A stretch of DNA of 64,000 bases from Marsupella aquatica (taxonomy: Eukaryota > Plantae > Marchantiophyta). Made by a program: the position numbers and the translations under genes. The stretch is taken from assembly GCA_973895155.1 (NCBI GenBank), contig OZ316892.1, forward strand, positions 21,329,619-21,393,618. The letters run 5' to 3'. Shown here one piece after another: positions 2,800-59,393 of this stretch (its first letter is position 1; each line of letters opens with the position of its first letter). Under the pieces are notes generated by a model, which saw nothing but the letters and a program-made list of their open reading frames with translations, did no database searches and was not told the origin of the DNA.

Positions 2800-5700
2800 A
2801 GACCACCTCCTTTCGGAGAATTAGGACAGCCGTACAAACTGCTACGAACTCCCTCCGAAGCCTTACAGAGTTAGGATAGTGAATACTGACAACGATCGAT
2901 AGTACGATGTAAGGAATAACAGAAATCTCCTGGCAGGGACCACTAGTTGTACTTTTTGGAAAACACGAAGAACAACCTTCACGACCGATAGTCTTATCCA
3001 TACAAAATACTCCAGGTGTCCTGTGTAATTTGTACCGTTGACATTATGGTACCCGTTGACTATTCCCAACGGAATCCTAACGGTAAACTTCGTCAAAAAT
3101 CAGTTTGACTTTTTGGCTAGCGAGATCGCTGGCATAAACTCAATGACACAGATATCCTTAAAAAGAGTTGAAATCAACGGTTTGCTTGCCATAAAACTAT
3201 CAAAACCAAGCTAGCGAGATCGCTAGCATGGGAGACGTCCTATACGTTGAGTAAAAGACAAAATAACGGTAAAATCAACGGGAACAGATTAACAATCTGT
3301 TCGGATTGTTGTTTCCGTTGGGAAAAAACCCAGTTTTGGTCCTGCAAATAGGATTCGTATGGGCGATTCAAAACATAGTCGTTGTATTTTTGTATGCTGA
3401 GAAGAGATGATGTCGATGAATTCCAAGGTGGTTTTGGAGCGTAGAATGACGGGAGACGTGGTGGTACTCCCAAGTGCCCCTGACTCGTCAGAGGTTAGGG
3501 TGACAGAGTCATTCCTTGCAACTCGTTTTGGAATTCCAAAAGATGACCTTGTCATGAAGTTGTTTGAGTTGTATTCTCAAAATGGGCCACGGAGTCACGA
3601 GTTGAGAGAGGACAGTAGTACTTCCGAGAAGGTCTGGACGCTGAAGGTTGGATCTTGTGTCGAGGTTATGTCCAGTAAAGATGGTTTTCCTGATGTCATT
3701 TTGGAACCCATGGAATTAGATCCCATTCATCAAACTCCTGTGATTGATTTTGGGACGCCTCCCAAAGACAGAGCTCCCGAGGTCATTGAAATATCTCCAG
3801 AGAGTATAAGGCAAGACACATCTTGTGGTTCGATGAAGTCACAAGATGGTTCCGAACCCGAAGGGTTAGCGACAAATTTGATTGAAAGGAATGGGGATAG
3901 CATGACCACAGTGTATCAGATGAGTGCCTATGACGCTTTTCTCAATATCAGTGGAGCGAGTGAACTTGCACAATTTAGAAGAGGGAATCAATGGAATGAA
4001 TGTCAGGTTTCGACTTTGCCATCGACATACAATGGTAACGTTGTTTTTGAACTTCCTCCAGTCGAGGGGGCCGGGAGGGGAGGAGGTCTCCAAGATATGG
4101 ATCGAGAGAAGGACGGCTATCCTTGGACGAGACTAGTCACTACATCTGCGAATTTGAAGCCAAGGTTTCATTGGGCTGTGTCGAAAGTTCGTTGCGCTGG
4201 AATTCTTGAATGCCATAATTTGGGTTGCCGGAAGTTGAAACATACTGGAGTCAAAAATGACTGCGCTTTCAGAGGGAAAGGGTTGCTGACTAACATCTTT
4301 CGTCTTGGAGAGCAAGTGAGTGAGGGCGGACTTGTCTGTGGCTTCTGTGAAGAGAGGCCTCTCTGTATTCGAGAATGCCCGGCAAAACTGTTGTATGTTT
4401 ACCCTAAGCCAGGTTTGGAGAGTCACATTTCAATGCATATGTCCAGATTGGCTATGCATATGGGATTCCACGATCACCCTGTTTGGGAGGGAAAATCTCG
4501 TTCTGCGAGAAAAACAGCGGAAGATGTTGTTTTAGGGGTCCATCGGTTGAATCCAGTCTCAACTCCCGCACATCTGAGAAACCAGTCAATTGGGAACCTT
4601 GTCTCGCTATTGCATCCAGAATCATCGGCTCAATTTTTGAGAGAAGAACAACAAGAAATTTGGAGTTCGATTGGAGTAGTTTCTACCGCTCCAAAGTTCC
4701 AAGCTATTCTTCGGAGTGTGAAGATGGATAATCCTAAAAAAGGAGAACTTGACTCACTTTGTGAAATGCAATCACGTAACAATTTCCCTTTCGTGCAGAG
4801 GTACCTGTTTCCCAGTCAAGGAAACAGAAATGATCGAGCGCATGTATTCAAAATGAGTACAAATGGTCCTGGATCGGGTGTGGAAATTTTGAGGAGCATG
4901 GAGGCTGGAGGAGCATTGGAAGGTTTGTGGGTCAGTTTTGACGTGATGCATCGTATCACTAGTGGATGGTTGACCTTTAGCGCACACGTGTATGACCATA
5001 ATTACCGTGCTCTGTGTACAATTTTCACTTGCGAGTTGAGAGCCGAAGACACAGAGTCGCTTGAAACTGCGTGGAGGTTAATGGTAGATGTCGCATCCAA
5101 GAATGGAGTGCATAATCCCATTATTGGAGGATTCATAGCAGACAATGCGGAGGCTGGCTGGATTTCTGTGAGAAGGGTATTTTTTGGGGGTGTCAGAAAT
5201 CCTCTGAAAGAGCATAGTGATGCTTTCCATCTCTCTCAATCCCTCAGAAGACACACTTTGGAGGGGATCAAGGAGGGGTGTCATGCGGAGCACTATAAGA
5301 TGTGGGAGAAGTTAAGAATTGCTCCAACATACGTCGAAGCATATCGTATCGCCGAAGACATTCAAAAATGGTGGAAAGAGGGGAATTGTCACCCATCCAA
5401 GCTTCAATCACTACAAGGGTGGATTTCATGGTGGGTTGTGCGGTGGAGACAATGGGGTAACTTTATTCGTGTGGTGAGTAACGGTGAATTCTTTCTGATG
5501 AGTTTAAGCTAGCGAGATCGCTAGCAATAAAACTTATTTCGTAAATGTATTTTGGTCACCGACTGAAACATTAGACTGTCTCAAAATAGACATATCGCTA
5601 GTGAATACAAGTTGTAACTCTGCTCATTTTTCAGACGCAAACTGCGAAGGAGTCTGCTCTGATGCCAAACTGTGCTGGAGCTGAATCTGCTCACGCATCT

Positions 5701-7684
5701 ATGCGTTCCTGCCAGCCGAAGAAGAAAATTGGTTTGATTGAAGCCTGTGAAGTTGACCAAAATCGAGCAGCTGGACAGATTGCAGCGTTCACTGCATACT
5801 TGGAAGGGTGTCACCGTGGGAATGGTCCTACAATATTTGAGCTGGCCTTCAGAAATGCAGATACAATGGGGTCTATGGATGCCTATGAGAAGGCATCCAA
5901 TCTACTATTTGAATCATCTGGAAAATATGAGTTCTATAGAACTGTGCCTTTACATGGAGATCTTAGAACAACGTCAGGAAAACGGAAGGGTAGTGCTTCT
6001 GCTTCTATTCATGAAAACGATTCTCATAGACATGATAAGATATTGCGCACAATGGCGTCGCGGTCTAGTTTGAAAAGGAGAAATCTTTACACAGAATTTG
6101 GTAACTTCAGCGGTGCTTCTGATATTGGTGGACCTTCAGACTTTCCTGGTGATGAAGACAACCCCACTTGCCATGGACCTTCTCTTCCTCATGAAGTTAT
6201 AAATATATCAGATGATGGTGAAGATCTTAGCCGTGGAGATACAACATAGGACCCGAACTACGTTGGAGAAATACCATAGCCTCAAAATAATCGGGATGAA
6301 ATTCGGGATGCACCCCGAAGGATCCCTTTTGTTGAAGAGGTTGATGTGACATATGGGACCTGGCACTTGAGGCGGAGTGGAAAAGGGAGTGGACCTGTTT
6401 GCAATGGACGAGTGGAACGAAGTGTGTTTGGAAGAGATGAGTGCAGGAATCTCATCAAAGAAACTGGAATGAAGGCATTCCGGGCTGGAGTGGTTGGTGT
6501 TGCGATTCACGGATTGAGGTTGTCATCTCCACATCGTCAGCTTCTATACTTCTGTCCGAATAATAGGTGCCATAAAACAGGTGGCAGAAGGACTCTTGCC
6601 CAGCTTCCGGAACCACCTGAGGCATTGCAAGTCCAGCGTGGGACCAGGCTGACCCCAACAGAGATTGACTTTCTTCTTCGAAATGGGATTGAAATCAGAG
6701 GATTATCATACTCTGATCCAGCACCGATTGGGTCGTTCTCCTCTCCAAATCGTGTTGACCTCCGAATTGATGTGAACTCCTTCCCAGAAAGAGTTGACAT
6801 TGGTATTCCAAACCGTAGATTCAAGACCCGGAATGGGAAAGGCGTTCGTCAACGTTTCTAGAACACCCGGAGCTTGTCAAACGCATTCGATCTGCGACTG
6901 ACGAACATATGAGAGTCATTGGAAGTGAGAAGATATGCCTCGGAAATGGGTGGGGATGGCAATATCTTATCGTCACTCACGAGACAGATTCTAAAATTGC
7001 ACACAAGTACTGGGTCCAAGTGTGTTGCTTTCCTTCTTGCTCATGTGATGACTTCTACAAGAGACACACGAGAGGAAGACCCTATATGTCTTGTAAACAC
7101 CTCCTCTGGGTGTACTTAAACAAGTTCTCACTGAATCTAGATAGAGACGATCTTCACTACAACACTATCGGCCGGTTTTGCGAAGACAATCTCATCGCAA
7201 CTAACAAGCCCTTGATTTTCATAATTCTGGCTATTGCGAACATACACGCATCGCACCCCCTTCGCACTTTGCGAACCTAATAACTTCGCACGCGGACCAT
7301 CGCAACGGCATCGCAACATCATGGCAAACCCGACATATTTGGATCTGAAGTTCTGAAGTTAATTGACTCAAAAAGTGCGACGCCTTGGGGTTAATATTGT
7401 GCGATGGGAATGAGTTCTTAAAGGGTTCGCAAAATTATGATCACACAGGATTCAATACATTATTTGCGAGGGGTTTTCCTTGGAACCCAATGTGGAAGGC
7501 AAAATTGTTGTTTTATAAAATGGAAAAGCATGAACAAAATGATAGGGCTTCAAAGAACCCTATACATGGACAAGAGGGGGGAAATATCTGATGCTAGGTC
7601 CGCCCTTCTAAACCTATGCTGCCTCTTCCTACCCTAAGCTCCGGCATGACAAGTCACTCTCATGCATGTATCTCTACAAAATAA

Positions 7685-12622: not shown

Positions 12623-12772
12623 GATTACTTTAGGGACATGTATTATATGTTCATCGTATGTGAACGTATGTTTTGTAATGACATGTTCTTTTTATATTGT
12701 TAATAATATGTTTCAAGCACTACTATATTTGGCGTTAATTTCATTGTGAATACTTTATTGTATTTTCTATAG

Positions 12773-16043: not shown

Positions 16044-17408
16044 TGCACTAGTAGTAAAACTTGTTGTGGGCCCAGAATTTGACCCTAAACTAACTATCAT
16101 GGTTTTATTTATATTAACATATTACTTTTCTTCTTTTGTTTTACAAACACTTAATTGGACTTTGAAATTTCATCTCACTGTTATATATGCAACCTTAGCC
16201 GTTTCCAAAGCTATCCTCATGCATGCCACCTTTTCGAAAACCCTAGCTGTAACCTAAACACATGCATTCTCCATCTTGTAAAGAAACTCTCTCAAACATT
16301 TCCATTCTACAAAATTTTCAAACAACTCTCTTTGCAAAACATTTTCAAGCTTGTCAAGAAGCAACTTCTGAACACTTTGTGAATAACACACCATCGGTAA
16401 TTGTGATGCCAATGTGTTCTCAACTTTGCGAATCAACTGGATTCGGTAACTTGCGACTATTTATGCTTCACAATATTGTGCGAAGCTAATAGGTTCACAA
16501 TATATATTTGAGTACATTATTATCGCTAAATTATGAAACAAAAGAGATCCAAATGCAGTCGCGATGGTCGCGGATCCACAAATACTTTGCGAGACGAATA
16601 GTATCTGAAAGAGTTGCGAATTCAATCCGATCTCAAACAAATTGCGAGGTATTTAGCTTCGCAACACCATGTTGCGAACCTGTGAGCATGGTTTATTGTG
16701 ATGCGTGTTTGATCACAAAATATCTGAAGTCGATGACATTGCAAGACCATCCCGGCGTAAAAAAAAAGCTTCGCAAAAGGGGCCAATATGTAGTAGTGCT
16801 TGTGAAGCAGCCAATTCTGACTGTTGCTGAAGTAAGGAGTTTGATTCCGTTGTAGTGTAGTTGACTTAATCTCTATTATCCGTTGAGGTGAACGTTTCAG
16901 CGTCCCTAATTTTGTCGCCTTTTTGGTTTTCAGAACAGAGGAAAGTCGTCCACCTCACTAATTATATTGCGTATGCAATGTTAGCGAGGGTCTAGTACTA
17001 TTCTATACGTATCGGCAATAGTGTTTATTTTGCTAGCGAGGTCTCTGGCGTTAAACCCGTAAAGTAAAGTTTTATGTTTCCCGTAAACGGTTTCTTTTTG
17101 ACCAAGTTCTACATAACGTAGAGTTCAATAACTCATGTACTTTAATTGGTTTTTGGATATACATTCGGAGAAACAAACCATTTTAGTCACGCATAGTTTT
17201 GCTAGCGATGTCGCTAGCAAAACTAGTACTGTAAGTCCAAACATTGCAGTCGGAAATCTTCTCAAGAAGTTATTTCAAAATGAACAAAGATGTTCTCCCT
17301 TACAACTGTGTGTCGATATCACGTTTTCGGATCCCAGATCTACAAAATAGACACAGTCTACAAAATGTCTATGCCCTTACAACATGGACTACCGTTACTG
17401 TTTCCTAT

Positions 17409-17840
17409 TCAAGGGCTCGCTGCCTTGTACGCATCGGAGTCAGAGTCGGAGACTGTATCATAGTCGGAGGAAGCGAGGATGTTTTCCGTGAAATAGTCGT
17501 GGATCTCGAGGTCCCTCCAGTATGACTCCTCCTCTTCTCTCTTCCACTTCGCCGATACCCCCTTACAGACAGGCGCTTTCGAACGAGAAGAAACTTGTGT
17601 GTGGGAGACCGGATTCGTCAATGTCTCCTTACAAGGTGCGGCCGTCTTGTAGTCCTTGGACAGGACGGGAGCCTTGCTACCGGAAGGGGATGTACTCCTC
17701 TTAGGTTCGTCGACAGTACTCTGAGTCTGCTCCGATTATGTGGACCTTGGAGGTGAATCCAGTTGACCGTCAGTTTTGGCGTTATATCGCCGAACTTCCA
17801 GAATCCATTTACGAGAAGATCCACCCTCGTTCCGTGCCAT
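17409..17840 (-). other. Possible small third gene of MULE copy 1 (unknown function, disrupted)
   Basis: ATG at ~17840 just after an acceptor-like TTTCAG; ORF fragments with an acidic tail (YWRDLEIHDYF..SDSDSD); flanked by the element palindromes. No recognisable domain. Confidence 0.3.
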
Positions 17841-19652
17841 TTCTCCCTGAAACGAAAACAAATGCGATAAGTTTACTTGAAATCTTTCGAAAAGTCTTCT
17901 TATGTTGACGAACAAGAAAGCGAATGACAACGAATACCTGATAGAACACCAAACTGCAAGTGGACAACATATGATAGAGAACGGGGATACCTCGATCCGG
18001 ATCCGAGCGGAAAATGTATGCTCCTTGCTTCGACGATAGTAACGACAGTTTCCAGGATGACAGTAGCTTCGCTGACAGTAGCAGAGGTCACAGAAGGGCT
18101 TCGACAATCGGGAACACAACAAGCAAATCGCGCTTCGAGTAAGCGTCGAGCCCAATAAAAGTCTGAAAGAATGGCTGAAAGGAAATGAATGGAAATGTTT
18201 CTTAAGGAGCGAGTAAGATATAGGGGATGGTGGATAGCTGGAGATCCTTCCCAACGGATTGGGATCTTGTCTGTTGGTTGTACTTAGATCTTGTCTGTTG
18301 TGAATTTCACGCTCGGTGTCCGGATGAAGCTTTGGATTCTGTCCTTGGATGCGCTCCCGAGATTGTTTAAGTCAAAAGACATGCTTCCTTGTCCCGTGTC
18401 ATTATGATTTATTCACGTCTTTAACGACTGCACGCCAAAGTTCGTGCGAGAATTATGGGTGTCACGATTGCTAGCGATTTCGCTGGCCTGACGTACGTTC
18501 CATGATGATGGTCACTTATAGGGTCTTTAAGTGGACTGTTGTGCAACGATTACGTGATATGTAAAAATGTGCGAGAATGATGGGCATAGTTATGACTAGC
18601 GACTTCGCTGTCCTGATGTACGGTAGAATTATATGTTGAATTATGGTGCCGTAGACGACCGTTCGTGTCCGGGGAATACGTAATATGTACCAATGCATCG
18701 TCGGGATCGCTTTTTAAACCCAATGGGAGTTAAATAAATAGGTGGAATAGAAGGTTCCTTTTAGGCTAGCGAGTGTCACTTTTTGCTAGCGATGTTGTTT
18801 TCGTGCTAAATTTTGGGTATTCCAAGGAGAAAATGATCCCGTGCGAGGAAATATTTTACTGTTTCCTCACACGCTACAATGACCCCTTTATAAGGAGCAC
18901 TCTTCCTTCATTCTACTTCATTCTTCTCACTTTGTGTCTACGCTCACCTTGTTTTGGTACGTGTCCATTGCAGTAAGTCATCTGGCTTGTTCATGTTCAG
19001 CCTCTGATGTGAAAGCTCATCGCAGTTGTACTCCTTAGAAACATTATAGCATTCCAGTTCCACTTTTACTTTTGGGGGAAACCCCCTCTAAAGTCCCGAC
19101 TGTTATAGACAATCTCGGCCTCTCCCGAAATCTAACAGGAATTCTATATAATGTCGGAGTACTTTCTGACCACTTTTGCGTTTGGTGGAGGCTTCTCTAC
19201 AGCCCTGTTATAGACAATCTCCATCTCTTCCTACTTTTAATTCTTGCGCAGGTTCTGGTCCTACACAACACTACGCCGTCCGTTGGTTTCTTTGATCGTC
19301 ATCGAACTCCCTGTACGTACTTCAAACCCACTTGAAACCCTACGTCCCTCTTACTTCTAGCTTTGTGTATTATCAATCAATCGAATCAGTATTCCTCCTG
19401 CCAGTGTAGTGAGATGTACGTAGTTTCATGGATTTAATATAGATCGATCAAATATGCGGTCTGAACTTCTCAACAGGTTTTTGGCTCCATAAGGAGATAT
19501 CTTTGGTCAAGAAATTTCATCGCAGAAACTACGTACATGTCCTTTTAGTAAGGAGATCGGGAGGTATCAACTACTAATATGGTGACTGTTTTCTTGCGTC
19601 AAACTTCCACGTACTTCGAAGACCAGTTCATTTTGTGGACCCTCAAGACATC

Positions 19653-23364: not shown

Positions 23365-23558
23365 GAATCTTGATCGCAGCAATGCAGGACGTTGAGTTGA
23401 ATTGCACTATGCCACACAATTCGAACTGTAAGCTTCAAGCAGGGTGTCACAATCCCAACATCGTTTGCTGCCCGCTTTCACATAGATAATTGAAGTTTTG
23501 CTGATGTCTAGTGACAGCCTTCTCTCTAGATACAGCACGGCTATCTGTTTAGGGTGAG

Positions 23559-30987: not shown

Positions 30988-32458
30988 AAAAGACTTGGTC
31001 AGGAACATATAGTTGTACACTTCTATCTTGAGCAGCTGCTATATATTTGCTGAACAAATATATGTTGGACCATTAATTTGTAGTTTGATTTGGCCTACAA
31101 ATCATTTCTTAGTAGCAACCAGGGTAGCAAGCTCTTTACGCAGTTAAATGTGGATTTGCATGGGCCAGTTGGTAATGAGCACGGAACTACTACAATGCAA
31201 GCTCTGCGGTTGGGAGTATAAATATTCTGGTGGAAATACAATCTTGCAACTTTAGGATTGCAAGAGAGTTTGCTGGTTACTCAACCATAAGTAGACTTCA
31301 TCTTGTACAACGTGTGAGTACAAATAAACATTGAAATTGTTTTAATTTTACAAAATATATGTATTACAATGTGCAGTGCAACAACACTCCCAATTTAGAT
31401 CCGCAAAAGTTTTTATAAATTGCTATGTAGACCTTCTATCGGCATATGACCCAGTAACCAGTTCTCTGCTTCTTCTATAGGGGTATTTACATAAGACAGG
31501 AAACAGGAAAACAGGAAACCCAAAAGAGGAACCGATGACAGGAAACAGGAAACCGAATATAGAAAACTTCAGCGAAGAATTACGGAAATTTTTCTGGTGT
31601 GAACAAAGAACTTGACATTCAAAACAGGACGTTTAGAAGATTCGAGTTGAATGCACAAAAAATGGTTAAGAATAGCGCCAGGCGCTCGTTTAATAAGCTT
31701 ATGGGAACTGTACATTGAAAACCATTTTGACTGCTATCCGTTAGCAAATAGCAAATCCGTCCCGAAGAACAAAAACTCGTGTACAAGAAGATATCAAAGA
31801 ACGTTGGGCGTCTCGGTCGGGCAAGTGAGCACACTAGCGCCTGGCGCTAGTTCTCTCGGTTGTGGAAGAACTGTTGTCGTCCTCGATGCCAGCCATAGAT
31901 GTGGCTGTGTTGGGAGTAAAACCATTCTCACGAGGAGATTCTCCTTGGATTATCCATGGCAGGTCAGCGTAAGAGCTCGAACACAATCAAAAGTGGAAAG
32001 CACTGTAAGACGATAATGGCGGATCACCTTGAGAACTGATGCAATACTGGGCATTCAGGACTTAATCGCTCAAAGTTTATAGGGATTAGGGTGTAATATC
32101 ATGGCTCCCTGAACCGCCCGCTCCATCTGGAAATGGTGGTTGCATCCTCAAACTCCCGTTATGGTCTAAAACGAAAACGGCCGTCTCAACATCAAACGGG
32201 CGTTTTCACCTCACATGACCATCGCGACAGACCAGACAAAGATTCACGGGAAAATTTGACTGACGTCATCCAGAAAGTATGGGAGTACCAATGTACCAAC
32301 ATCATGACCGTTATACAATTATAGTAGTGTCGGGCGCTACTATAACAGAAAGTGTACTTCGAGCGGACACTCCATGGTTGCAACTGACATATAATATCTT
32401 TTATTGTACAATATTTCTTGCATACATTTGGGTAGCGCCCGACACTAGCATAGTTCCA

Positions 32459-35400
32459 CTAAAAAATACCTAAAAAATCTGAGCACTCCGATTCACTTGA
32501 TTCGGACCTGTCGGTAGATTCTGCCTCGATGTCTAAAAATTCGCTCTTGGCCATATCATCCACAAATTGGTTCCGCATAAATTTTCTATCAGACCCCCTC
32601 CTTAATCTCAAGCCTTTATTCTCCCAGTGCAGGGTCCGCACACTGTCAACTCTTCTAGCAACATTTTCAGCATAGGAAGGTAAGACAAATGGTTTCTCGG
32701 GAGTTTCAATATATCGCCTAGCTACTTTCCGTCTGAGTTGGAAACGTCGGCGTAGATTCCAGTCTGACCTGAGGAGGAGAATATTGGATTTTATGTCAAC
32801 GGTCGAAATATTTGCAAAAAAGGAAATAAAAAATGTGACATCAAAGAAAGAAGAAGGGAATCGACCGTAATAAAAAACTGGGTTAGCTTATGAGCTTACT
32901 CGGTAGTTTCTTACTCAGAAGAGTCTCCGCTATCACTCCCTCCATTAGATTCCAAATCTTCTCCGGTTAAAGACACTCTGGGAGGTGGCCCATTGGAGGT
33001 GGTCTGCTGGCTATTCTTGATGCATCGACAGGACCGGAGCCTATTCACACTGCTAGGATCTTTTGTGTATATCAGACTCTCTGGATGATTTGGCTGGGAA
33101 GAAATGAACATATGTTCTCTGACAAGGTGGGACGTTCATTTGACTTGGGCCTGATGCTTGCTGAGACTGCCAATCACATCCATGCGGTTGGGGCTGGTTT
33201 ACGCTTTGGGCGGCGTCGCTCTCGGTTGAACCGGGCTCAGGAATGGTTGCGGGGAACGAGGCAAATCTGGCTGAGACGGGGTGGGGACAGGATTCTCTTG
33301 GTGCCCTCTAGCGGCGGCGGTGCTGATTGAGGGGTCTGCTTTTTGGGGGGCTGCTGTGGGAAGGGCATGGGTGCTCTCTTGATCGGTGTTATTTCCCTTC
33401 TTTGAGGGGGGGCTCTCCCTGGGGCTTTGATGCTCTCTTTTGTGCTTTTGGGCTCTCTTTGTGGCTCGCTAGTGTGTTGTTGCTGTCCCTGTATTAAGGG
33501 CTGTTGTTCCCCCTATCCGTGGGGTCTTTCACGGTATTAAAATTTATTAAAAAAACCATTCCAAGGAAAGACACTCTGGGAATGTTGGGATCCTCCTCTT
33601 CTTCTTCCCCCTCTTCTGCTTCATTCTCATCTTCGGAGTCAAAATTTAATACTGATTTAAGTTTGTCTCTCTTTTGTTTTGCAAGCACAGGCTTCGGAGG
33701 GGCTTTGGACTCAGATACTTTGGGAGTTAGAAGGTCAAGAAATATTTTTGAAGCGGATTCAACGAACTCCTTCCTATTCTTGAGCCCAATTACAAATCGA
33801 CCACAATTGTCACCTGCCACAAATGTACTCCCAGAACCTACAGCCTAATCCAGAACAATATCTCCAGGACACGTGATTAGTTCGAAAATAGACTGCATAA
33901 ACCCTGGATGTAGTCTGGCATTCCCGACAAATTCAAGCTCTGGAGTTGTATCCACCTTCGCAAACGGAAGTCCGATCAGATTTGTGATAAAGGGATCCTC
34001 TGTTCTTGAAAGAGGTTTGAACTTAGGATCCTTTGGGACTTTCACCTTGGATGATACCCGACAAAATATATCCAAACGTAAAGTGAATACCTGAAAAGGG
34101 AACATGAACTGTAAGTAAGGACCTAAGAATTGTCATAGCGCCGGGCGCTAGCAAAGAATTAAGAGCATGATTAGTAGTGTACCTAGGAAAAGATTAAAAT
34201 TTCTAATCAAGCACCAGATAAAATGAGCAGCGCCTAGCGCTAGCAAAACTTTGAAATTGTGATGAATAGATTTACCTGCAAATCAGACTTGGCCTTGTAC
34301 ATGGGGAACCCCATGACAACATTATGTGTACACAAACATTGGAATTTCTTAGACTCTTGACATGCTGAGATGACCTGTGAAATCTGATTATACTCCCCCG
34401 TATGGAGTATCGCAATAATTCCGTCATCCAACAAAAAGGGATCCATTGCCCGGAAAAAACATCGGGCTAGCGTACAGTCGGGAACGTTCCATTTAGGGAC
34501 CTTCCTATCAAGCAAAGTTGGTTTTAGCCCAGTTGGCAAATAAATAAAACCAGCGTCAACACCAAAAGGCCTTTCTTTCCCACCCCTCACCACCCCTTTC
34601 AGTTGGCATCCCGATTTGATTAAGTCCTTCCCCAACTTTTTGGCATCATTAACCCATTCTGGCTTTTCCTCCTTGTTAAACATACTATCCACTAATTCAC
34701 TGACACTGGTCTCAACGAAACAATGACGAGATGCCTTGGATTTAAAATTCCCAACATCACGTTGGAGCCTGGTGGCCGCCAGAGAATCCCTTTCTGATTG
34801 CCCAGCATCGCGAGTCCTCCTGCTTTTCTTCTTTGTACTCGTTGCATCAACTAGTACAACTGATTTTCCAGAATTAACTGGTGTAAGTGAATCTGGCAAA
34901 GTGCTAGTATTTGCTTCTAAAGCTTTCGGGGTAACCTTTGTATCATCAGTGGCGTCTGCATCTGACTTCTTTTGACCTATTCACACAATGCAGAGAATGT
35001 GGTAGTGTCAGAAAGAAAAAAATGGATTAAGGTTGAAGTACAGGAATAGTATTGCCAAGCGCTAGCAAAGAACTAAACTGGGTTTGAATGAAAACATACG
35101 TTTCTTTCCGGATCGCGTTGATGCACTTGGCAGTGCTGTGTCTACTTTCACTTTCCCTCTCGGCTTGCGGCTCCTGTCTACATGGACAACTACTGTCTCG
35201 CAGATTGTTTGTAACTCAGAAGATGATTTGTCAACGTCGCTCAGGAGCCCTAGCTTGCTTCATCTCAAAAACTATGTTGGGTAGAATCTGCAACTTGGCT
35301 AGTTTAAGAAACCAATCCTTCTCTACTTTGTCAAATGGTGAATCCCACTTGTCTGTGTCAAGATACCACAGGCAATGAATTCTTTCCCACTCAGACATTT

Positions 35401-37396
35401 CCCGTGGTGGAAGTTTACCCTCGGCAGGATACATCAAATAAAAGTCAGCAACATGATCTCCCTCCAAGTTTGCAACAATCCACTTGTGAAATGCAGCTGG
35501 ATACGCCCAAAGTGCATTCGGGGAATGTACTTCCATCCATATGTAAAAACAATACAAATACCTCTTGGCCCTCTTCTGATTTTTCTCTGTATATACCTCT
35601 TTATTAGTGTATTTTGATGGCCACATGGTGTTGAAGAACTTTGCCTTCACAAGATCCCCATACCTTCTGAACTCACTTGAAATAATTTCAATCAGACCCT
35701 CTACTGAGTCACACCTTGAATGGGCAAGCCTATCAACTGGGAGTGTTTCAATGGCTGCGGAAATTGCAGACTGCAACATCCCAATTGTGATTCCCTCGAC
35801 GGTATTCTAGGTCTGCCATGTGTGACACCACTGCTCAGTGGATCATCATTCACACTGGCAGGGTGGAAGAATTGTTTTCTCAACTCTGGAGTACAGTGAG
35901 CAACAAGCAAAGTGCATCTCACTTTTGGATCGAGAGCAGAAATTGCTGTGAATAGTCTAGCACGGTCCATAGTACAAACAACCGAATCGGGTTTTTTCTC
36001 TCGGTTGTTCAAGATTCTCCGTCAATACGTACATCTCTGCACAAGTACCTAGAAAATCTTCAAACTCAGGACTAAGAAGAGGAGTGATTTTGGATGTTTT
36101 CGTAGACCAGTCTTTGGTGGCCTCTTTCAACATGAGTGATTGCTGCTTTGCAACCTCATCAGCCGACCAAGGATTGCCTTGACTTGCTGCCAATGCTATG
36201 TCCATCTTGAACTGGTTAGTGTAAGCTTTGATTTTGTTTTTGCATAAAATATAAACAAGAGCTTCCAGAGGCATTTTTTGTGTGTACCAAGAATGTTTTC
36301 AAGTCTTCTATTTTATATACTCAAACTTAGCATAATTGGCGCTGTCAATTATTGACTTATAGTACTCTAGATTGTGAGAGAGAATCCTTCAGATTCTGTC
36401 TGCGTCAAGGATCCACGACGGTTCAACAACGGCCTGCCCTAACCTACAATAGGCCATGTTTGAAATTAGTAGCGCCAGGCGCTAGCATAAAAACAAACAC
36501 TCTCTTTAGTATTTATTTAACAACAACGGATTGTGGAAATGTTTAATTACAAGTTTGGGCCGAATTACTTACTGGTTGACTGTGTGCATAGCCGCCTCAA
36601 TCTGAATTTGCAAAGCTTTATCACCCTTGAAAATGCTGCAGAGAACTTTGGGATGATACTTGGCATTGTCTGGATTTTCCTTCAATGTGAACATAGTCCA
36701 CGAGTAAAGTCGGTGATTCCCGTCAAAGACTGAGAACATTTTGTCTTTCAAGATCGTAAAAGCTGGATCTGCCGCGCATTCTAACTCAAATTTCTCGTTC
36801 TCAGCAACCCAAATAGCATCCCAAGTCTCCCTGATCGCCTCAGTGCATATTTGCTCCACACCATCGGAATCGGTCGGTTGCACAAAAAACCGCATTCCAA
36901 TCCTTGGATTGTAGCCACTACTTCGGAACAAGTCTTTCAATTTCTCAATTGACGCACTCTCCTTCTGAAGCGTCTGCACTGCCTCCATGAGGATCAACCG
37001 ACAAAGCGGAATCCTAGGCGGTTTCTTCTTGTTTCCACGGAAATCTTTTCCAAATGACATTATGTGTCGCGAGATGACTTCATCCATCCCTAATCCAACC
37101 TCGTTGCCCTCTCCCAGCGCGTAATTGGTCATGCTATCCGTGTCCATTTGGACCCTTCTGGACTTCTGGAGTGGTAGTGTTGCGTTGAAGGAAGTGATTG
37201 CTCCGCTCGACCTTGTAACTCGACGCAAGTAAAATGCCCTAGAGAACAAAGATTGTGTAGACTCGCAATGACCCTGATCTCCCTCTAGAACTGTGGTATA
37301 CCCTCTTGGAGAGCTTGGGGCGCTTGAAGGTTGCATTGTGGAGCATGTCAATACGTGAAGGTCTTTGTACGACACAGAGCCAGTCTCTATCCTCAC
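32459..37396 (-). pseudogene. ParB/Srx-like + N6/N4 DNA methyltransferase-like fusion gene (copy 2)
   Basis: ParB-like FSVFDGNHRLYSW exon ends at 36573 (same phase-2 intron as copy 1). Middle exon homologous to copy 1. VDAGFIYLPTG..W..FFRAMDPFLLDDGIIAIL (motif IV-VI region) precedes LHPGFMQSIFELITCPGDIVLD*AVGSGSTFVAGDNCGRFVIGLKNRKEF (motif X-I-II), i.e. beta-class order. Several stops and frameshifts; 3' exons uncertain. Confidence 0.8.
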
Positions 37397-38233
37397 GCTC
37401 CGAACAAATTACTGTACACAAAGAACAACATAAAACCTTTAAAACTTTTCCATCATAGTGCAGTTGACATCATGTGACGGAGAACGAGAAGGATTGAAAG
37501 AATCTCATTGACCAATCCAAACAAAGACAGGTGGCAGGGACTATTTGAAATGAGTAGAATTCACGTCTATTTTCAAGTCATTTGTGGATGCAATGATGAA
37601 CGGGAGTGTATTGTTAAACAATCCAACGAAAAACAACACAAAGTAAGGAATTCATTCATACATGTTACCGTTAGAGGTAACCGTTGGGCAAACCAAAGTC
37701 ATCTCCATCGATACTAGCGCCCAACGCTAGTATCAAAAACCATTAAAAATACTCTCATACATGACAATGACATGAAGGAGATTATGTTAGCGCTGGGCGC
37801 TAGCTATGTATACCCCTTGTATTTTCCCAAGAAGTAACGATTCCAAAACAAAATGAAACGTTGAAATTGATTTTTTCAGCAATTCCATCAAAATCAATAA
37901 AATATTTCGCTCTGACTTGACAGTCCGCTAATGATAGCGCCTGGCGCTAGCACATTCAGTCTGGTTTCTAAGTTGAAACCCGAGTACTTCTTTATGGTAG
38001 CGTCGGGCGTTAATAATTATATGATCGCATTTTTTACACGTTACCGGTAAGTAGTGTCGTTGGCAAAACGACAAACTACATTTATGTGTCTGCATCTAAC
38101 GACTAGTACCCGTTTTGTCGTTTACAAATGATAATCTTCTGAGGTTTGGAATGAGTTTACTTAACTTAAGTCGAGTAATGTTCTCCTATTTTCTCAGTTC
38201 CTTTGTTTATCAAATTAACATCATTCTCCCGCA

Positions 38234-41200
38234 ATGTCTAATTCAGTCGTGCTTCTTCGTCCTGATACTGGGGAGATTGTAAGCATCCCTGTAGGTTCAT
38301 CCAACACGTACAAATAGGTTAGTGAGAACTATCTTTGTGGAAGATTTGACATTGCCATCAACGACATCCATTCCATCAAACCTGACCATGCATCTGGAGA
38401 GGAGACAGATGACGCACTGTTTGATATCGATGATGGAGTCAGATTTTGGCACCTCAATGCTGGAAAGAGATACATTATCAATATCCGACAACATTCCGTT
38501 ATGAATGAAATACATCCAGTTCCATTCATTGACCTTTTCGAGAGTGATGAGGAGGAGGTCGCCGTAGATTTGCAGACATCGGCCAATCCAGGGCCTTCTA
38601 TCAAGATAGAAGGTCACTCTCCTTCCAAGACAAACGTTTTGGGGGGTGTTGTGTACTATCAAAGCGCGATGGATGCCATTCTCAAATCAACTGGCCATAG
38701 TGAACTGTCGCGGTTCATCCGAACAAGCGATTTCAGGCATGAGCAGGTGAATTGTCTACCAAGTAAATACAATGGAAATGTTGTGTTTGAATTGCCTCCC
38801 ACAGAAGGTCTGCTATCAAAAGGTTCGAGGCTCCGTGCATGGACTGGCCTAAAGACTGCTACTTCTGGACACGGATATTTCCAACTTCTGCAAATGTCCA
38901 ACCTAAAAAGTTTTGGGAATTTGGTAAAGTGACGTGTACCGGTGCACTCAAATGTCAAAATCAGAAATGTGATTATCTGTTGCGGAAGAAAAGAAGAAAT
39001 TCAAAACCTTGGGATGGGACACCCAAACTTGCAGGGCCACATACCGTGGGAAAGATTATTGAGGAGGTTGGGGTAGTTTGTCACTACTGCCAACAATTGC
39101 CCTTTTGTACTGAAGCTTGTTCAGCAATGCTTTTTTATATGTACCCGCAATTACTTCTCGACGCGGATACATGTAAACATATGTCGCGGACCTTGTTGTG
39201 CATGTCGGAACTCATGCGCATCCCAGTCGTAAAGTTTTTTCTCGAGGTGCGGAAAAGATTGCTCATGAGTTCATAAAGAAGCAACATGAAGCTACACCAT
39301 GTGCCACACCATCGGGTATGAAGAATGCCATAATTGGATCTTTAAGGAAGGCTCTCTGTGTGTCCAACAATGACATCGGAGAATCGGAGGAAAGAGAAAT
39401 TTGGGAGTTGTTAATGGTTGTTTCGACCCCTCAAAAGTTTGCATCTCTTTTTCGGAGTGTTCAGCAAGACCAAAAAGGTAAAGGTGAGTTAGAGTTTCTT
39501 GTGGAAATGCAGAAATGCATAAACTTTCCCTTTCTACAACGTTACATGCTCCCAAGTCAAGGCTGTAAGGAGGAGAGGCCATATATTTTCAAAATGACGG
39601 TAAAAGGGCACGGATCTGGAGTTGATTTATTGCGCCAAATGCAACCTGGAGGTCGACTAGAAGGCGCGTGGGTTAGTTTTGATGGGATGAGGAGAATGAC
39701 CAAGGATTGGGTAACTTTTAGCACTCACATTTATGATCACAATTACCGTGCTCTTTGCACAATCTTCACATGTGAGTTGAAAGCTAAAGATTCTAAGTCG
39801 TTAGAAAAAGCCTGGAAATTGATGATTGAGGTTTGCCATGAAAATGGGTTAGACAACGTAGTAATCCATGGATTCATGGCTGACAATGCTCAAGCTGGAT
39901 GGAATGTTGTTCGGAACATGTTTTTTGGTGGACATCCTAACCCGGAAAAGGAGCGATCGGATGCATTTCACTTCTATCAATTGTTTCATCGTCATTCAAT
40001 TGAAGGAGTATTGGAAGAAAAACAAGAAGAGCACCAGAAGATGTGGGACTCTTTAAGGAATGCGTCAACATTTCTTGGAGCCTACAGAATTTCTAGGGAA
40101 ATCGATGTGTGGTGGAGATCAGGGAATTGTGTTCCAGGAAAGCTTCGGATGCTCCAAGGTTGGCTTGCGTGGTGGGTGGTCTGATGGCGTCAATGGGGAA
40201 ATTTTATTCGTTTGGTGAGTTTCAACATCCATAAACAAGTAAACACTCAAAATCAACATTTTAAAAGAAGGAATCAAACAAAGTCATACTAGCGCTTGGC
40301 GCTATCATTATTTCCAGTGACTTTTGTGTCCTAGTTCCACTCCAATATTTGCCTGAGTTTTGATACTAGCGCCCGACGCTAGTTTTATTAACCACTTGTT
40401 ACTCGTATTTATCCATATTCTAGTGTGAATGGTGGTAGCGCCAGGCGCTGGCATTGATTAAACCCGAAAACCTAACAAAATGATTTGGTTCAAATGTTTC
40501 TTTATTGAATGCAGTGACTAAGTCATATTTCCTAAACTGTGCTCCAAATGTTTTATGCAGAACAAAAGCATAGAGGAAAGCGCTATGATTCCTAACTGTA
40601 CTACTTCAGAGGCGGCACATTCCATAATGAAGGCTTGGCAAACTAAGAAAAAGGCTGGTCTATTTGAAGCATGTGAGATGGATCAAAATAGGGCTATTTC
40701 ACAAGTTGCTGCGTATACGGCGTATAAGAGAGGTCTTAACCGAGGAACCGGACCTACAATTTGGGAATTGGCATTCCGTTCGGCAGACCAGGCAGGTTCT
40801 TCAAAACTTTTCCAAGATGCTTCCAATATGCTTCTTTCCGGTGCGGCTGAATTTGACCTGGAAAGGAGTGGCCCTCTCAATGGGGATGTTACCACAAAGT
40901 CTATGAAGAGGAAAGGTCAAGCCTCTGGGAACATCTCAGCACAAGACTCCCATCGGCATGACACTATTCTTGTAACATCACCAAATACTCGAGGCATGAA
41001 AAGGAAAAACTTAAACAAGACTGAATTCTCCCCCGTTGCATCGGGTCCTGTTCACCATGACATTGGCGTTGTGGACCTGTCAGAAAGTGAAATTGAAGAA
41101 GGCAGTCATTGGAGTACTCCGCCCCGGAGGAGGTCAACAAGGTCGTCTGCAGCCCTGCAAAGTGCACCTCTCAACCTCCAAAAGGTTGTCCATGACTCAG

Positions 41201-42078
41201 CTATGTTGGAGACAGATGTGCGACCAGGGGCGTGGCACCTACAAAGAGTGACGAGACATGGTGCAGGGCCTCAGTGTAATGGATCTCTTGGTGGAAAATC
41301 GGATCGAGATGACTATCGCAATCATCTTAAAAAGGTTGGTTACTCGTCAACGGATGGTGTAGTTGGCATTGTTGTCAAAGGATATCACGTGTTCAGGGGA
41401 GAACCACACCCTGAGATGATTTGGTTTTGTCCCAATAGTGCATGCTATAAGAGCCGGCCCCGTCGTAATGTGGTGAATCTTCCCCCATTTCCTCATAGCC
41501 TGCCCATTTTGAAAGGAACTAATCTTTCCAAGGCTGAGGTCCAATTCCTGACTCAGCAAGGGATTGCTATCAAGCCAGAGGCCGGACGTTAGGCTGCTCC
41601 ATCTCCTTTTGACTTGTGAATCAATGTGAACCTTTTCCCCGAGAAAACCAATCTCCTTGAGCCAAATATCCGCCTTCGGAGCAGGAATGGTAAAAATACA
41701 ATCCCATGTTCAAATCTTTTGCAAGGGCACAACAAAAGAATTGAATCCGCAAACAAGGAGTTGATGACCCTCGTTCAACAATTTGATGTTTCTGTCGGGA
41801 ACTCTTGGGGCAAACAATTTCAGATCCAAACCCAAGAGAGACTTCGCACGGCAAACACTTATTGGGTACAGATTTTCATTTTCCCATGTTGTTCTTGTGA
41901 GGACTTCTATCATCGCCATTCTCATGGTAGGCCCTTCATGCCGTGCAAGCATCTCTATTGGGTGTATACCAACGTCCTACAACTAGATGTGGTGGATTCA
42001 ACTTTGGCTAGTCAGCCAATTCTGACTGTAGGTGAGGTGAGGCTCATTCTAGCTAGGCAGAATTCTCTGGACTTATAG
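38234..42078 (+). pseudogene. MULE transposase (GCM-like, DDE, SWIM), copy 2
   Basis: Colinear with copy 1: YNGNVVFELPP, CTGALKCQNQKC..CHYC, HVGTHAHP, SFDGMRR, FMADNAQ, DAFHF, SEAAH, CSCEDF..CKHLYW. Intron ~40215-40560; multiple frameshifts and stops. Confidence 0.88.
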
Positions 42079-44394
42079 ACTAGACATTTAGTAACGTTCA
42101 ACGGCTCCAAACTAATTTGTCGCATTGGAACTTTTCACATATTTTCAATGATACCAAATCAGATAGTCATTTTGAATACACATTTTGTTATAACATATGG
42201 CTAGCGTCGGGCGCTAGCTTCAGTTTGTCCCTTTTTGGTGAATCTTGTTTGGTTATGGTCCGAATGCTTTCCAGTACTTATCTTTGCGATCGGAATCAAT
42301 CTCCGTTTGTGAACTTTCCTATATTTGAGTTCTTCTCGTGGGATATAAATCTTCCCCTTCCAGGTCACACTTCATTGAAGTGTACTTAATTATTTATTTA
42401 TGAACACCATTCAATCCATTTGGTCTCATCTCAAACCCCTTGGTTTTTTTGTTAGCGCCTAGCGCTATTACATAGTACCTTACCAATTCCGATGATATTT
42501 TTAAGACTGGTATTTTTTGAGTGTGCCTTGCCTCAGTAGCCTGTGTATGGTGGGACCCACTCTATGGTTTACGCATATATGGTGGAGAAGTAATTCAGTT
42601 ACAGAGACAGCATGTGAATTTGTTGTTGCAAGGAACCCGATCAAGTCTTACCTTTCCATCAAAAATGGGCCAAAAACTTCATATATTTACTGGTAACAGT
42701 TCCTGTTTTCCTGTTAACAGGAATCCTGTTTTCCTATTTCCTGTCTCGGTGGTGATGCCCCTTCTATAAGCCTAAAAGACTTGTGTTTATTGTCACTAAA
42801 ACCTGAGACTTTGTGCTCTGCTTCTTCCCAACATTCATAGATACCAGGATTCCCCGGCAAGATTCCGGCCTTTCCCCACTGCATACCACCGTTTCCTACT
42901 ATGCAAGGAGGGATGATTGCATCTAAAATATAACATCAAAGCTTGGATCAATCTGATGTTGGCCATGCCCTAAAACTTGAGCTGCCTGCCCATGCTCATA
43001 TAGTAGATGTTGCTCTCTCACTGTCGGTTGTTGAGCTGGAATTTGAGCTCGCTGGCTATGGTGCTCATATACAGGATGCATCCATTGCTGCTCTCCATGC
43101 TCATCTTTTGGATTCTTAGCAGGATGAGGGCTCCCTGGGCCCTTAGCGTTACTAATGCAGGGAGGCCGTGCGAACAACGCAAGGGTATTTTTAATGTAAT
43201 GCAAACTAATTTTTATAATATTTTTTAAAGTAGGCAACATCCATGTATATACATTCATCACAATATTAGTAATAAGGCTCTTATCAAATACATGTCACAT
43301 TAATCTTATGCAAGGGTACCTAAAATGTCAAGGACACGTGTCACTATATGGTTGGCACACATGTCATCACTTCATTGGCACACATGTCCATATAGTAAAT
43401 CAGACATTTAATTATTTATCCTCTTAAGGCAAGTTTGGTTTCATGGGTTTGCATGGTAGACTTGTTTACCCGCATGTGTTAAGTTGGGAGTTAAGTAAAT
43501 GTTGGGCCAGGATTTTGGGGCCCAACTCGTTTGGGGTTCTGGGATTGATGGGGACCCATGAATCAATCCCACATAGACAAACAAGATTACTTTTGAATTC
43601 CCTTGAATCAAATGGCCAGGTATGAGGCCAGGTGTGTTTGTGTGTGGGGTGTACTCCCTTGATCATTGGGTTGGGGGGGGGGTACTCGGTGCTCACAATT
43701 GTTTGATTGCAGAGATGGCAGGAAAATTACCCACCATGTCTAAGTAACAATTTCAGCCAAAGGAGATTTGATGGTATTACTCTCCACAATTTTCAGTAGT
43801 CATTTTTTGTATTATTAGTACTTTGTGTCTAGAATATGTATGATTAATGTGTGGTTTGATGTGTCAGGTTGCATGAAAGAAGTTGCCAAAAACTCTACTT
43901 ATCATTTGGTGTTAATGGTTGATGTCATACCATTCTTAGTCAAGATAGAATAATTTAGCAATTGGAGTTTACATAAGTAGTATATATGCAATTATTCCTC
44001 CAAGGATATAGCATAGCATAATAATGCATTTGTACTAGTTTAGTTTATCTCTATGAGGTCTACAAGTTGCCTGAGTTATAGTCATATACTCTAGAAAGAA
44101 CTATAAATCTTTAGTACTAGTTTTGTTATGATCTATATAAAATATGTACCGTGAACATCAGCGTAACATAATATTCCCCTATGCAAAATAGAATATTTTA
44201 TGTTTCAGTATGATATTACAATTTTTAAAAATTCAAGGTTTTTTTTAATTCCTTGAAAAACTCTGTTATAATTTACAAAAGGATAAATTTGTATAGGAAA
44301 AAATAATGTTTTTACATTAACAAGGGATTTTTTTTTGTGAACAAAAATATTAAGAAGGGGTACACGGGGGGTGTCTGTTCTCAGGGGGGTTCAC

Positions 44395-49180: not shown

Positions 49181-49509
49181 CACTATACACACGCACTCAA
49201 CGCCCTGTCATTTTATTATGCAAGTGAAAAATACATTCCCTGTTAAGGATTTCACCCCCGACTGTACTTGCCAAAAGACGTAGCATAACGTTCCAAAAAA
49301 ACAAAAAAACAAAAAATATAGGTGCCTGAGTCATGTACCTATTCTCAAGTGAATGAGACAAAATTCCTAAATGTTTGAGGGTGTCAACTCCTTCGTTGTC
49401 CTCACATGTACTGCCTCTGCACGTACATCCATGACCATATCAGAGTCCAATCATGTATAGTTATAGACACAGGTGCCAGGTGCGAGACCAGTGTGAGATG
49501 TCCTCATCT

Positions 49510-50450
49510 TACTACCACATCAAATACGGATACCAATCCTATTGTTGATGCCACTCAGCCCTGAGGTACTCAGGCATGTACATTAAGTCATCAAGGTCTA
49601 AACCCTGCTCATGCCATGGTGGTCTTTGATCCGTGCCTACAAGCAGTGGCAGCAATGCCCTCCACGGTGCACATGTTGCTACCAAGTCCCTCCACTGGGT
49701 ACTAATTAGTCTATATTTGCAGATATCTTGTGCGCCAGACACCACAAGAACCCTCGGCTAGACATGTGTAAGAACTATATCATCTGCCAAATCAGGCAAC
49801 AAGGAACCACCTACAGCATCGTGCTTGTCTAACTCATCTACTGAAAAGTAAATGTCCTCTTCAGACTGTGCATCCTCATTCACCATGGCATTCACAACAC
49901 ATCCAAGGTCTGCAGGCATTATCTTGGTTGGAGCTACAATCTGTCTGGTTACCAATCCACACATGTAAGCCCAAGCAGTAGCCATGCACGATGCAACCCG
50001 TAGGAGGGAGGTGTTTACAAAAGACAGCAAACAGGAAACAAGATTTAATAACAGAAACTGGTAACAGGAAAAAAACTGGTAACAGGAAAAAAACTGGTAA
50101 CAGGAAAATGGGTGGAATTTTTTTTTGAATTTTTTTTTGAGAAAAAAAAAGTTTTTTTGGTCGACCAGTTTTTTTTGCTAGCGCCCGGCGTTGCTAATAG
50201 TAGCGCCCAAAGCTAGCCAAAAATGTTGCATTGTTAATTTGTTTTGGAAATAATATGTTTTAGGAGACATTTTTAAATTGTCATTTTTCCTGGTAATAGT
50301 GATTTTTTCCTGGTAACAGCATATTAAAAATAGGAAAAAAAATTCCTGTTTACCTGTTTCCTGTCTCCGTCGTTATACCCGTAGGAGGACCCTACATAGG
50401 GCCTGTTGGTTTGGAAGAGGCAGCATACCCACCAAAGTCTTCAGCCAAAC
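49510..50450 (-). pseudogene. F-box-like gene fragment interrupted by MULE-derived MITE
   Basis: LLPDLADDIVLTHV*PRV..DICKYRLISTQWRDLV F-box motif; frame CRVLL|RVASC restored across the TSD. Confidence 0.65.
50008..50380. mobile_element. 373-bp non-autonomous derivative (MITE) of the ParB-MTase MULE family
   Basis: Ends GAGGTGTTTACAAAAGACAGCAAACAGG and (rc) GGGTATAACGACGGAGACAGGAAACAGG match copy-2 termini; 8-bp TSD GTAGGAGG; retains two TAGCGCC..-type palindromes at 50177-50217. Confidence 0.9.
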
Positions 50451-53323: not shown

Positions 53324-53396
53324 ATGTTCGAGTTTCTTGATCGCGATCCAGACTACCTCGGGGACGCGGATTACCTGTAATAAGTTGGACTTCGGG

Positions 53397-54149: not shown

Positions 54150-54511
54150 TCAAAAAGGCGAGCGGATGGCAGCGTCCGTGAATTCCAAAAAAAGGTAAAC
54201 GTGAGCGAATGGCCCGCAGTGCCATCGGCTCCTCTCTTATGGGGGTGCCCGGACGAGCCCGAGCGTGAGAAGGTCAGGCCGTTTGGTCATTGATAACGAG
54301 CTGAAGTCGGCGTCTCGGTCCAAGCGTGATTCTTCTAACTGATTTTTACTCCACTGCCGCCACCGTACCTCGGTCGTGCGTAATAATCCCTTTCCTGAAC
54401 TCGTAATTATTCGGTTATCTTAACCTACTCCTAATCTAATCATAATGGCAACTTGACGGCTATACGTGCTATTCTACGCTATGGCTACGGTCCTAATGAC
54501 CGTATAAGTCC

Positions 54512-55130: not shown

Positions 55131-55132
55131 CA

Positions 55133-56669: not shown

Positions 56670-56795
56670 GCCCCTTCCTTCACGTTGAGTACAAAATCAA
56701 AAGTTACTAGCTCACTACACGGCTCCACTCGTAAGGCAAAATGAGTGCCCCCTCCATCTAGCGCCAAAAAACCGGTCGCCGTATGTCGCACCCCT

Positions 56796-59296: not shown

Positions 59297-59393
59297 CTGA
59301 TGCTCCTTGAGATAGTCCGCATGTTCGAGTTTCTTGATCGCGATCCAGACTACCTCGGGGACACGGATTACCTGTAATAAGATGGACTTCGGG

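Follow-up and report, generated by a model that had tools for sequence, protein, structure and literature searches.

The stretch of DNA considered here, referred to as the window, comprises 64,000 nucleotides of the liverwort Marsupella aquatica (GenBank assembly GCA_973895155.1, contig OZ316892.1, positions 21,329,619 to 21,393,618 of the forward strand) and contains a DNA transposon resembling Mutator-like elements (MULEs), designated copy 2 (31480..42760; 11,281 bp). The non-coding parts of this element carry 17 copies of a 15-bp palindrome, TAGCGCC-N-GGCGCTA, often lengthened by (G)C...G(C), and comparison with related families supports the assignment of these palindromes as family-specific cis-elements. 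They are predicted, with a probability somewhat better than even, to be self-recognition sites for a ParB-like cargo protein encoded on the element, which would act in the manner of VANC proteins in anti-silencing or in promoter control.

Palindromic sites of copy 2 and its relatives

About 16 palindromes had been noted in copy 2 by a first-pass annotation, and all 16 were recovered, with coordinates right to within 1 bp; a 17th, at 35050 with 3 mismatches, was missing from that list. Of the 16 listed sites, four match the consensus perfectly, seven depart from it at one position and five at two. In the interval 31001-43000, 16 sites have ≤2 mismatches, whereas 300 dinucleotide shuffles of this interval averaged 0.003 such sites and never gave more than 1. 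The sites had been described as confined to copy 2, which is accurate to the left of the element, where positions 1-31000 hold no TAGCGCC-N-GGCGCTA site at ≤3 mismatches, but not to the right, where the only two palindromes, at 50179 and 50201 (2 and 3 mismatches, respectively), lie in a 373-bp derivative. No site at ≤2 mismatches was found in the approximately 43 kb of the window outside copy 2, a sister element described below and this derivative.

All 17 palindromes of copy 2 are located outside the predicted exons, the non-coding parts making up 32% of the element (P about 4e-9), with the exon borders predicted from GT-AG sites and homology, not from RNA. The earlier descriptions of the sites as absent from exons and host flanks, and as placed in introns, the divergent promoter and 3' regions, agree with this distribution. 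Four sites (31673, 31835, 32325 and 32433; 31673..32447) lie 3' of the ParB-like gene, between the left end of the element and the stop codon, and four lie in the introns of this gene, namely a perfect copy in predicted intron 1 (36470..36484), the sister variant of which occupies the matching intron (1951), the degenerate copy with 3 mismatches in predicted intron 2 (35050..35064), and two copies in predicted intron 3 (34136, which is perfect, and 34228; 34136..34242). The divergent intergenic region holds four further sites (37715, 37788, 37935 and 37998; 37715..38012), the transposase intron three (40290, 40367 and 40436; 40290..40450), and the region downstream of the transposase two (42202 and 42453; 42202..42467), the distances between sites being roughly 0.1-2.5 kb. 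Contigs joining the 34136 site to the sequence just past the 35050 site suggest that relatives may contain better copies.

The ends of copy 2 consist of short imperfect terminal inverted repeats, followed by subterminal ACAGGAA repeats (31496..31553, plus strand, with a mirror array near 42686-42745), and the element is flanked by the target-site duplication CTTCTATA (left copy 31472..31479, plus strand; right copy 42761-42768). Public contigs from three of four runs join position 31471 to position 42761, and the 8 letters shared at the joint can be assigned to either flank; this empty site fixes both the ends and the duplication. It may represent an allele or a paralogue, as the flanks themselves are repeated. 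Copy 2 belongs to a multi-copy family, since 1,326 to 3,858 contigs per run matched the stretch at 80-100% identity, a depth that gives no copy number. The outermost palindromes lie about 190 and 290 bp from the respective ends. The palindromes are distinct from the terminal ACAGGAA motifs, as had been proposed earlier, and the ACAGGAA arrays are likely the sites of the transposase, separate from the palindromes.

Two genes were found in the element in divergent (head-to-head) orientation, and both are broken in copy 2. The minus-strand gene (32459..37156), delineated by open reading frames (ORFs), tblastn with the Riccia proteins P0153 and P0015, and predicted folds, has five predicted exons, separated by introns at about 36444-36572, 34977-35099, 34091-34275 and 32769-32899, and would encode a ParB fold, a helical domain and a beta-class methyltransferase-like domain in one protein; it is interrupted by stops and frameshifts. 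Its last predicted exon (32459-32770) encodes an 'LPxYAE...FVDD' peptide that recurs C-terminally in several methyltransferase-like models of Riccia, and this exon, of uncertain membership, may be a conserved tail of the ParB-like gene or a small third gene.

The plus-strand gene (38236..42078) encodes the transposase and consists of two predicted exons with an intron at 40215-40560 and a frameshift. By eye, the transposase has an N-terminal Cys/His region (GCM/WRKY-like) followed by a D..D..DxxH (DAFH)..W-rich..E arrangement, and its C-terminal SWIM-like finger gave a weak match only (SWIM, E 0.066). A DDE domain with C/D-x-x-H and W, together with zinc fingers, is described for MULEs (PMC5225508), as are target-site duplications of 8-11 bp (PMC6446971). 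The 8-bp duplications of copy 2 and of the derivative satisfy this range, a length that is not unique to MULEs, and the combination of the transposase motifs with the 8-bp duplication fits the MULE description. Pfam searches with the copy 2 ORFs gave nothing above the cut-off, and for the transposase there was no Pfam MULE or KDZ match and no PDB match; a ToxA_barrel match in its N-terminus (E 0.0013, below the cut-off) was dismissed. A linked parA ATPase gene was not among the two genes found, and the element is for this reason not classed as a ParABS system.

The sister element, copy 1, is divided by a nested transposon into a left part (1..7150) and a right part (16798..19130; right end approximate), and it contains both copy 2 genes with 52-55% protein identity in the best segments. 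It carries nine sites of a different palindrome, TAGCG-ANNT-CGCTA, at ≤2 mismatches (1951, 3118, 3212, 5510 and 5587 on the left; 17034, 17203, 18472 and 18597 on the right) and none of the copy 2 motif, just as copy 2 has none of the sister motif, which bears out the earlier claim of family specificity; a further sister site, at 18787, has 3 mismatches. In the sister, the sites are found in the matching intron 1 of the ParB-like gene, between the two genes, in the transposase intron and in the 3' region. For a small minus-strand ORF-like region (17400-17850) between the downstream palindromes of the sister, no copy 2 counterpart was found, and the ORF overlapping it gave no Pfam match.

A scan of metagenomes for related loci yielded two, of which L001 covers the transposase intron and L002 does not; the scans of viral contigs and genome contigs found none. 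The independent contig L001, with a transposase 63% identical in the best segment, has three sites in the matching transposase intron with the consensus TAGCG-CCGG-CGCTA. Its palindromes (L001:1103-1307) are near-perfectly self-complementary over 26-38 bp, have common ATATTGC-like flanks, and are longer than those of the window families. The motif matched one viral sequence (L003), inside a phage ORF, and this match was taken as chance. Across the three families, the half-site TAGCG is constant, and the spacer is family-specific in both length and sequence.

The 373-bp non-autonomous derivative (50008..50380) has the termini of copy 2 (83-96% identical over 24-36 bp) and an 8-bp duplication, GTAGGAGG, and between its ends it retains only the two degenerate palindromes.

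The palindromes are also under constraint. Over 19 sites, 25 departures from the consensus were counted, 19 of which are C>T or G>A. In copy 2, the 17 palindromes show 8 changes among 170 instances of the five outer half-site positions, against 12 among 68 for the two inner ones (P 0.003), so the CpG-bearing half-site resists decay; the observed/expected ratio of CpG was 0.77 near the sites against 0.68 farther away, a difference too small to use. For the transposase intron, 40 of the 43 rows of variable positions among the family contigs were listed (39 positions), and one of these 39 positions falls inside the three palindromes, against an expected 5.3-6.6 (P 0.004-0.018); this sole listed change restores the consensus. 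Several contigs have other DNA in place of the stretch from the splice site to the palindrome and yet retain the palindrome.

The ParB-like cargo protein

A HMMER search retrieved 202 homologues of the ParB-like protein, those named being from Riccia sorocarpa and Adiantum, and a shared-word search for longer homologues retrieved none. In a quick tree, which took in four non-homologous window rows, both window ParB domains fell inside a 34-row set with Riccia (SH-aLRT 95). The structure was modelled for the Riccia homologue P0155 with a 135-row alignment, and most 10-residue blocks over about residues 10-580 had a pLDDT above 70. When this model was compared with 48,161 chains, the top match was KorB (Z 7.5, root-mean-square deviation (rmsd) 6.0, 185 of 201 residues, model residues 26-392), and the next four were other ParB/Srx-fold proteins. 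Further comparisons gave Z 8.6 for Myxococcus xanthus ParB (rmsd 4.8, 193 of 194 residues, model residues 27-390), Z 8.5 for C. crescentus ParB and Z 8.0 for Noc (rmsd 5.0, 199 of 199). For the N-terminal domain, all 14 top structural rows were of the ParB/Srx fold, and residues 21-182 matched the B. subtilis-type ParB 6sdk with Z 8.3 (rmsd 2.7, 98 aligned).

The matched ParB, Noc and KorB chains extend over the DNA-binding domain, so that the prediction covers a ParB-like DNA-binding region as well; the isolated DNA-binding domain 6s6h gave Z 4.1 only. The predicted architecture of the cargo protein is therefore a ParB nucleotide fold and, after it, a DNA-binding region of ParB type that is broken by a long helical hairpin. 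No Pfam match for a ParB domain was obtained, and a profile-profile comparison with nine KorB/ParB proteins gave no match even for the N-terminal domain, and is uninformative on the DNA-binding domain.

A box-II-like [DE]GNHR motif, which differs from the GERRxR consensus, was present in 81 of the 96 motif-matched hits (of 150), with the Arg conserved in 84% and a downstream Asn in 88%. In KorB, R117 is needed for cytidine triphosphate (CTP) binding and N146 for hydrolysis (PMC11790492), and from their position the GNHR Arg and the downstream Asn are inferred to be the equivalents of these residues. CTP is not implied as the ligand, since the ParB/Srx fold binds CTP, ATP or GTP depending on the family (10.1101/2025.10.10.680097). 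The exon at 36572-37156 (minus strand) has fungal DUF3723 clusters (0.95-0.96) and a cnidarian cluster as its language-model neighbours, hinting that DUF3723 may also be a ParB-fold transposon accessory; no Pfam DUF3723 match was obtained for the ParB-like protein.

The canonical catalytic motif of beta-class amino-methyltransferases is (D/N/S)PP(Y/F/W). The C-terminal domain shows the permuted beta order in the alignment, with motif IV before motif I, and its homologues matched the Pfam family N6_N4_Mtase (PF01555; E 5e-5, below the cut-off). CcrM was the best match both by profile (E 0.0025) and by a low-confidence model (E 1.6e-4; pLDDT 46). In its place, the Riccia proteins have motifs of the DLPTG/DLPSG/DMPTG type, the members P0131, P0108 and P0127 have DLPTR, DVPFG and DFPIG, respectively, copy 1 has SLPTG and copy 2 has YLPTG. 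Methyltransferase activity is uncertain, because the motif is non-canonical in every member examined; the domain is classed as methyltransferase-like only, and an active enzyme is doubtful. The product had earlier been labelled a ParB-methyltransferase protein, and the first half of this label is supported, with a predicted ParB fold and the box-II Arg largely conserved, while the second does not extend to a canonical catalytic motif.

Candidate readers of the palindromes

If the palindromes serve for self-recognition by the cargo protein, a ParB-like dimer would read both half-sites, load with a nucleoside triphosphate (NTP; CTP or another) and spread across the roughly 0.1-2.5 kb between sites, and this spreading would shield the divergent promoter and the introns from host silencing, as VANC does on VANDAL elements; alternatively, the protein may tune the promoter, as KorB does on a plasmid. 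The methyltransferase-like domain might add an N4-methylcytosine (4mC) or N6-methyladenine (6mA) mark, or act without catalysis. That binding is combined with loading, sliding and methylation all together appears doubtful. Equally tentative is the broader proposal that a transposon lineage of seed-free land plants took over the bacterial ParB-parS clamp, which loads and slides, as an epigenetic device by which the element addresses itself; such a clamp would load at palindromes in every non-coding compartment and mark or shield its own element by means of the divergent amino-methyltransferase domain, and new families would escape cross-talk by altering the spacer between fixed half-sites.

Recognition of the palindromes by the ParB-like protein is favored, besides the site counts, the reciprocal exclusivity of copies 1 and 2, the constraint on the half-sites, the structural matches and the box-II-like motif given above, by the terminal ACAGGAA arrays, which already give the transposase separate sites, by the presence of sites in the matching transposase intron of three families, and by palindromes being what ParB and KorB recognise. 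Several observations weigh against it. The predicted intron 4 of the ParB-like gene in copy 2 (32769-32899) and an intron at about 484-568 of copy 1 contain no palindrome; the change from a 4- to a 5-bp spacer demands a changed dimer geometry; and only two protein-motif pairs are available for co-variation. L001 shows the transposase only, and a link to a ParB-like gene was not seen there. Both unitig ends and the 80% identity floor introduce bias into the contig-variation test in the transposase intron. The structure modelled is that of the Riccia homologue, not of the window protein, its Z scores are middling for helical proteins with an rmsd of about 5, and a Foldseek search with it returned no match at E ≤ 0.001, the top three rows being ParB proteins. 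Moreover, no member examined has the (D/N/S)PP(Y/F) catalytic motif, and the derivative that keeps two sites fits a role for the transposase equally well.

Such a role, in which the N-terminal zinc-binding domain of the transposase would bind the palindromes as synapsis enhancers or for activation of its own family, is the main rival and is considered rather unlikely. The reduction of the derivative to termini and two palindromes and the position of the L001 sites beside a transposase would both be accounted for, and the AtMu1 transposase alone is reported to bind cognate motifs and to hypomethylate its family. In that report, however, the terminal repeats showed the strongest AtMu1 binding (10.64898/2026.08.24.746577), whereas the ends of copy 2 have their own ACAGGAA array and the palindromes fill the interior, and the element encodes a second candidate reader, the ParB-like protein. 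A host transcription or chromatin factor exploited by the element is quite improbable as the reader: placement in promoter, intron and 3' regions would be typical of enhancers, but two families in one genome have mutually exclusive spacers, and sites with ≤2 mismatches are missing from the remaining 43 kb or so of the window.

A function as RNA hairpins (in splicing, termination or small RNA formation) or as DNA cruciforms is very unlikely, even though most sites fold (up to -18 kcal/mol with flanks), some are self-complementary over 25-38 bp, and fixed arms with a variable center of 4-5 nt resemble a stem-loop. The arm sequence is identical in three families with no compensatory change, the departures from the consensus are strand-symmetric (10 G>A and 9 C>T), no Rfam match was found, and the intron positions are not fixed. 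Self-pairing of the near flanks within sites amounted to 42 of 102, against 41.5 after permutation, and the double-stranded reading is favored over the hairpin because these flanks pair no better within than between sites; one of six flank-pairing tests (copy 2, the more distant positions 7-12) gave P 0.02. The first-pass annotation had pointed to a CC(A/T)GG core in the best copies as a methyltransferase target, and a corresponding use of the sites as plain substrates in the style of restriction-modification is highly improbable. The core is intact in three of the four perfect copies, and the domain belongs to the beta class, with CcrM as a relative, but only 5 of the 17 sites overall have this core, the center base is unbiased (A4 T5 G5 C3), the inner C positions decay fastest, the sister motifs contain ANNT or CCGG instead, and the catalytic motif is non-canonical. 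The last alternative, neutral by-products of local duplication or insertion footprints, is largely refuted and retains a negligible probability. One pair of sites (37710, 40362) is 85% alike over 33 nt, but flank identity among the 17 sites (best 21/40) does not exceed that of random non-coding positions (mean maximum 19), no tandem repeat covers any palindrome, and families whose proteins have diverged by about 50% still share position and half-site.

Surroundings and known systems

The transposon nested in the 3' end of the sister transposase is a CACTA/EnSpm element (7151-16797) with a 3-bp duplication CTT and Transposase_21 and DUF4218 domains; it contains a SET-domain ORF (11807-12622; E 3.6e-5, above the cut-off), and dense TTGCGA/TCGCAA arrays of its own occur close to either end and in the interior. 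On the minus strand, another CACTA-like region (46954-62374), with Transposase_21 (46954-47844), a BRCT ORF (50687-51316) and NSD-type PHD fingers (61898-62374), suggests that chromatin-reader cargo may be carried there; the same region holds the 373-bp derivative and the long direct repeats of a probable retroelement (50848-60500). Probable host genes are represented by a Kelch-repeat ORF with a premature stop (19578-20777) and by an intact-looking glyoxal oxidase/galactose-oxidase-like ORF (21685-23406).

Overall, the element resembles VANDAL/VANC in layout with a predicted reader of the ParB/KorB type, and is a member of neither system. In Arabidopsis, VANC binds family-specific motifs in the non-coding parts of VANDAL elements, with both binding and demethylation shown (PMC5735166). 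The likeness lies in a Mutator-like element with an accessory gene and with non-coding motifs, placed in introns, between genes and at the termini, that are specific to the family and differ between related families. The VANC motifs, however, are 8-9 nt long, tandem-repeated and, in the relevant passages of that report, not described as palindromes (PMC5735166), in contrast to the dispersed 14-15 bp palindromes found here, and the candidate reader of the latter is a predicted ParB-fold protein with no known relation to VANC.

With KorB-OB of IncP plasmids and ParB-parS (PMC11790492), the element has in common palindromes scattered over a mobile element, and KorB and ParB gave the top structural matches over both predicted domains; OB also shares TAGC/GCTA with the half-sites, a similarity so short that it may be chance. 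It differs in having no parA, a eukaryotic host, a long helical insertion, an extra helical domain, a methyltransferase-like tail, and GNHR instead of GERRxR/GARRYR. The KorB operator occurs in 11 copies in 50 kb of R751, and the site density of copy 2 is about seven times higher. Fusions of ParB with N6_N4 methyltransferases in phages and prophages have the same domain pair and are likewise on mobile elements, but are prokaryotic and intron-less; the survey that describes them names sulfiredoxin as the main eukaryotic member of the fold and, in the passages concerned, does not mention plants or transposons (10.1101/2025.10.10.680097).

The general idea of a ParB-like protein acting on its own transposon is already in print for algae. 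Sola1-1_Ec32 of Ectocarpus has a ParB-like/N4C-N6A methyltransferase gene (PMC12477816), and in the red-algal Plavaka protein PAG3 of Bostrychia a ParB-like domain is fused to a 2-oxoglutarate (2OG)-oxygenase with adjoining tandem inverted-repeat arrays (10.1101/2025.02.11.637652); self-binding and modification were proposed in both cases. These elements, likened to copy 2 by description only, belong to other transposon superfamilies and hosts, the PAG3 repeats are tandem and local (10.1101/2025.02.11.637652), the Ectocarpus passages name no sites (PMC12477816), and the relevant parts of the two reports describe no dispersed family-specific palindromes of variable spacer. Fusions of ParB-helix-turn-helix with N6A-methyltransferase have also been noted in chlorophytes and chytrids (PMC4738411). 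DUF3723 cargo of fungal Starships (10.1101/2021.12.13.472469) is likewise conserved cargo of eukaryotic transposons, its feature similarity to the exon mentioned above being a lead only, but it belongs to another transposon class, and the passages concerned describe no sites. MpDN4MT1 of Marchantia is a beta-class amino-methyltransferase active in a liverwort, from which it follows that 4mC exists in liverworts; it is a host sperm enzyme with TSPPY (10.1101/2021.02.12.428880), whereas the proteins considered here have D/S-L/M-P-T/S-G and a ParB fusion.

Literature searches found no land-plant transposon with a ParB-methyltransferase gene and no dispersed spacer-variant palindromes, although the Bostrychia supplements and the Iyer 2011 chapter cited for green algae may bear on this point. 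No report was found of what appears to be new here, namely the land-plant family, the dispersed palindromes, and the fixed half-site with a family-specific spacer.

The locus supplies exact candidate sites, three specificity variants (CCNGG, ANNT and CCGG), a short derivative that retains sites and near full-length natural homologues from Riccia sorocarpa, so that cognate and non-cognate binding with and without NTPs is directly testable. If self-recognition by the ParB-like protein is true, self-recognition of the VANC kind would have evolved a second time, independently, and a ParB clamp may be working in a eukaryote. Should the broader load-and-slide proposal also hold, the protein would be a sliding clamp, gated by nucleotide, that acts on eukaryotic chromatin and has known target sites.

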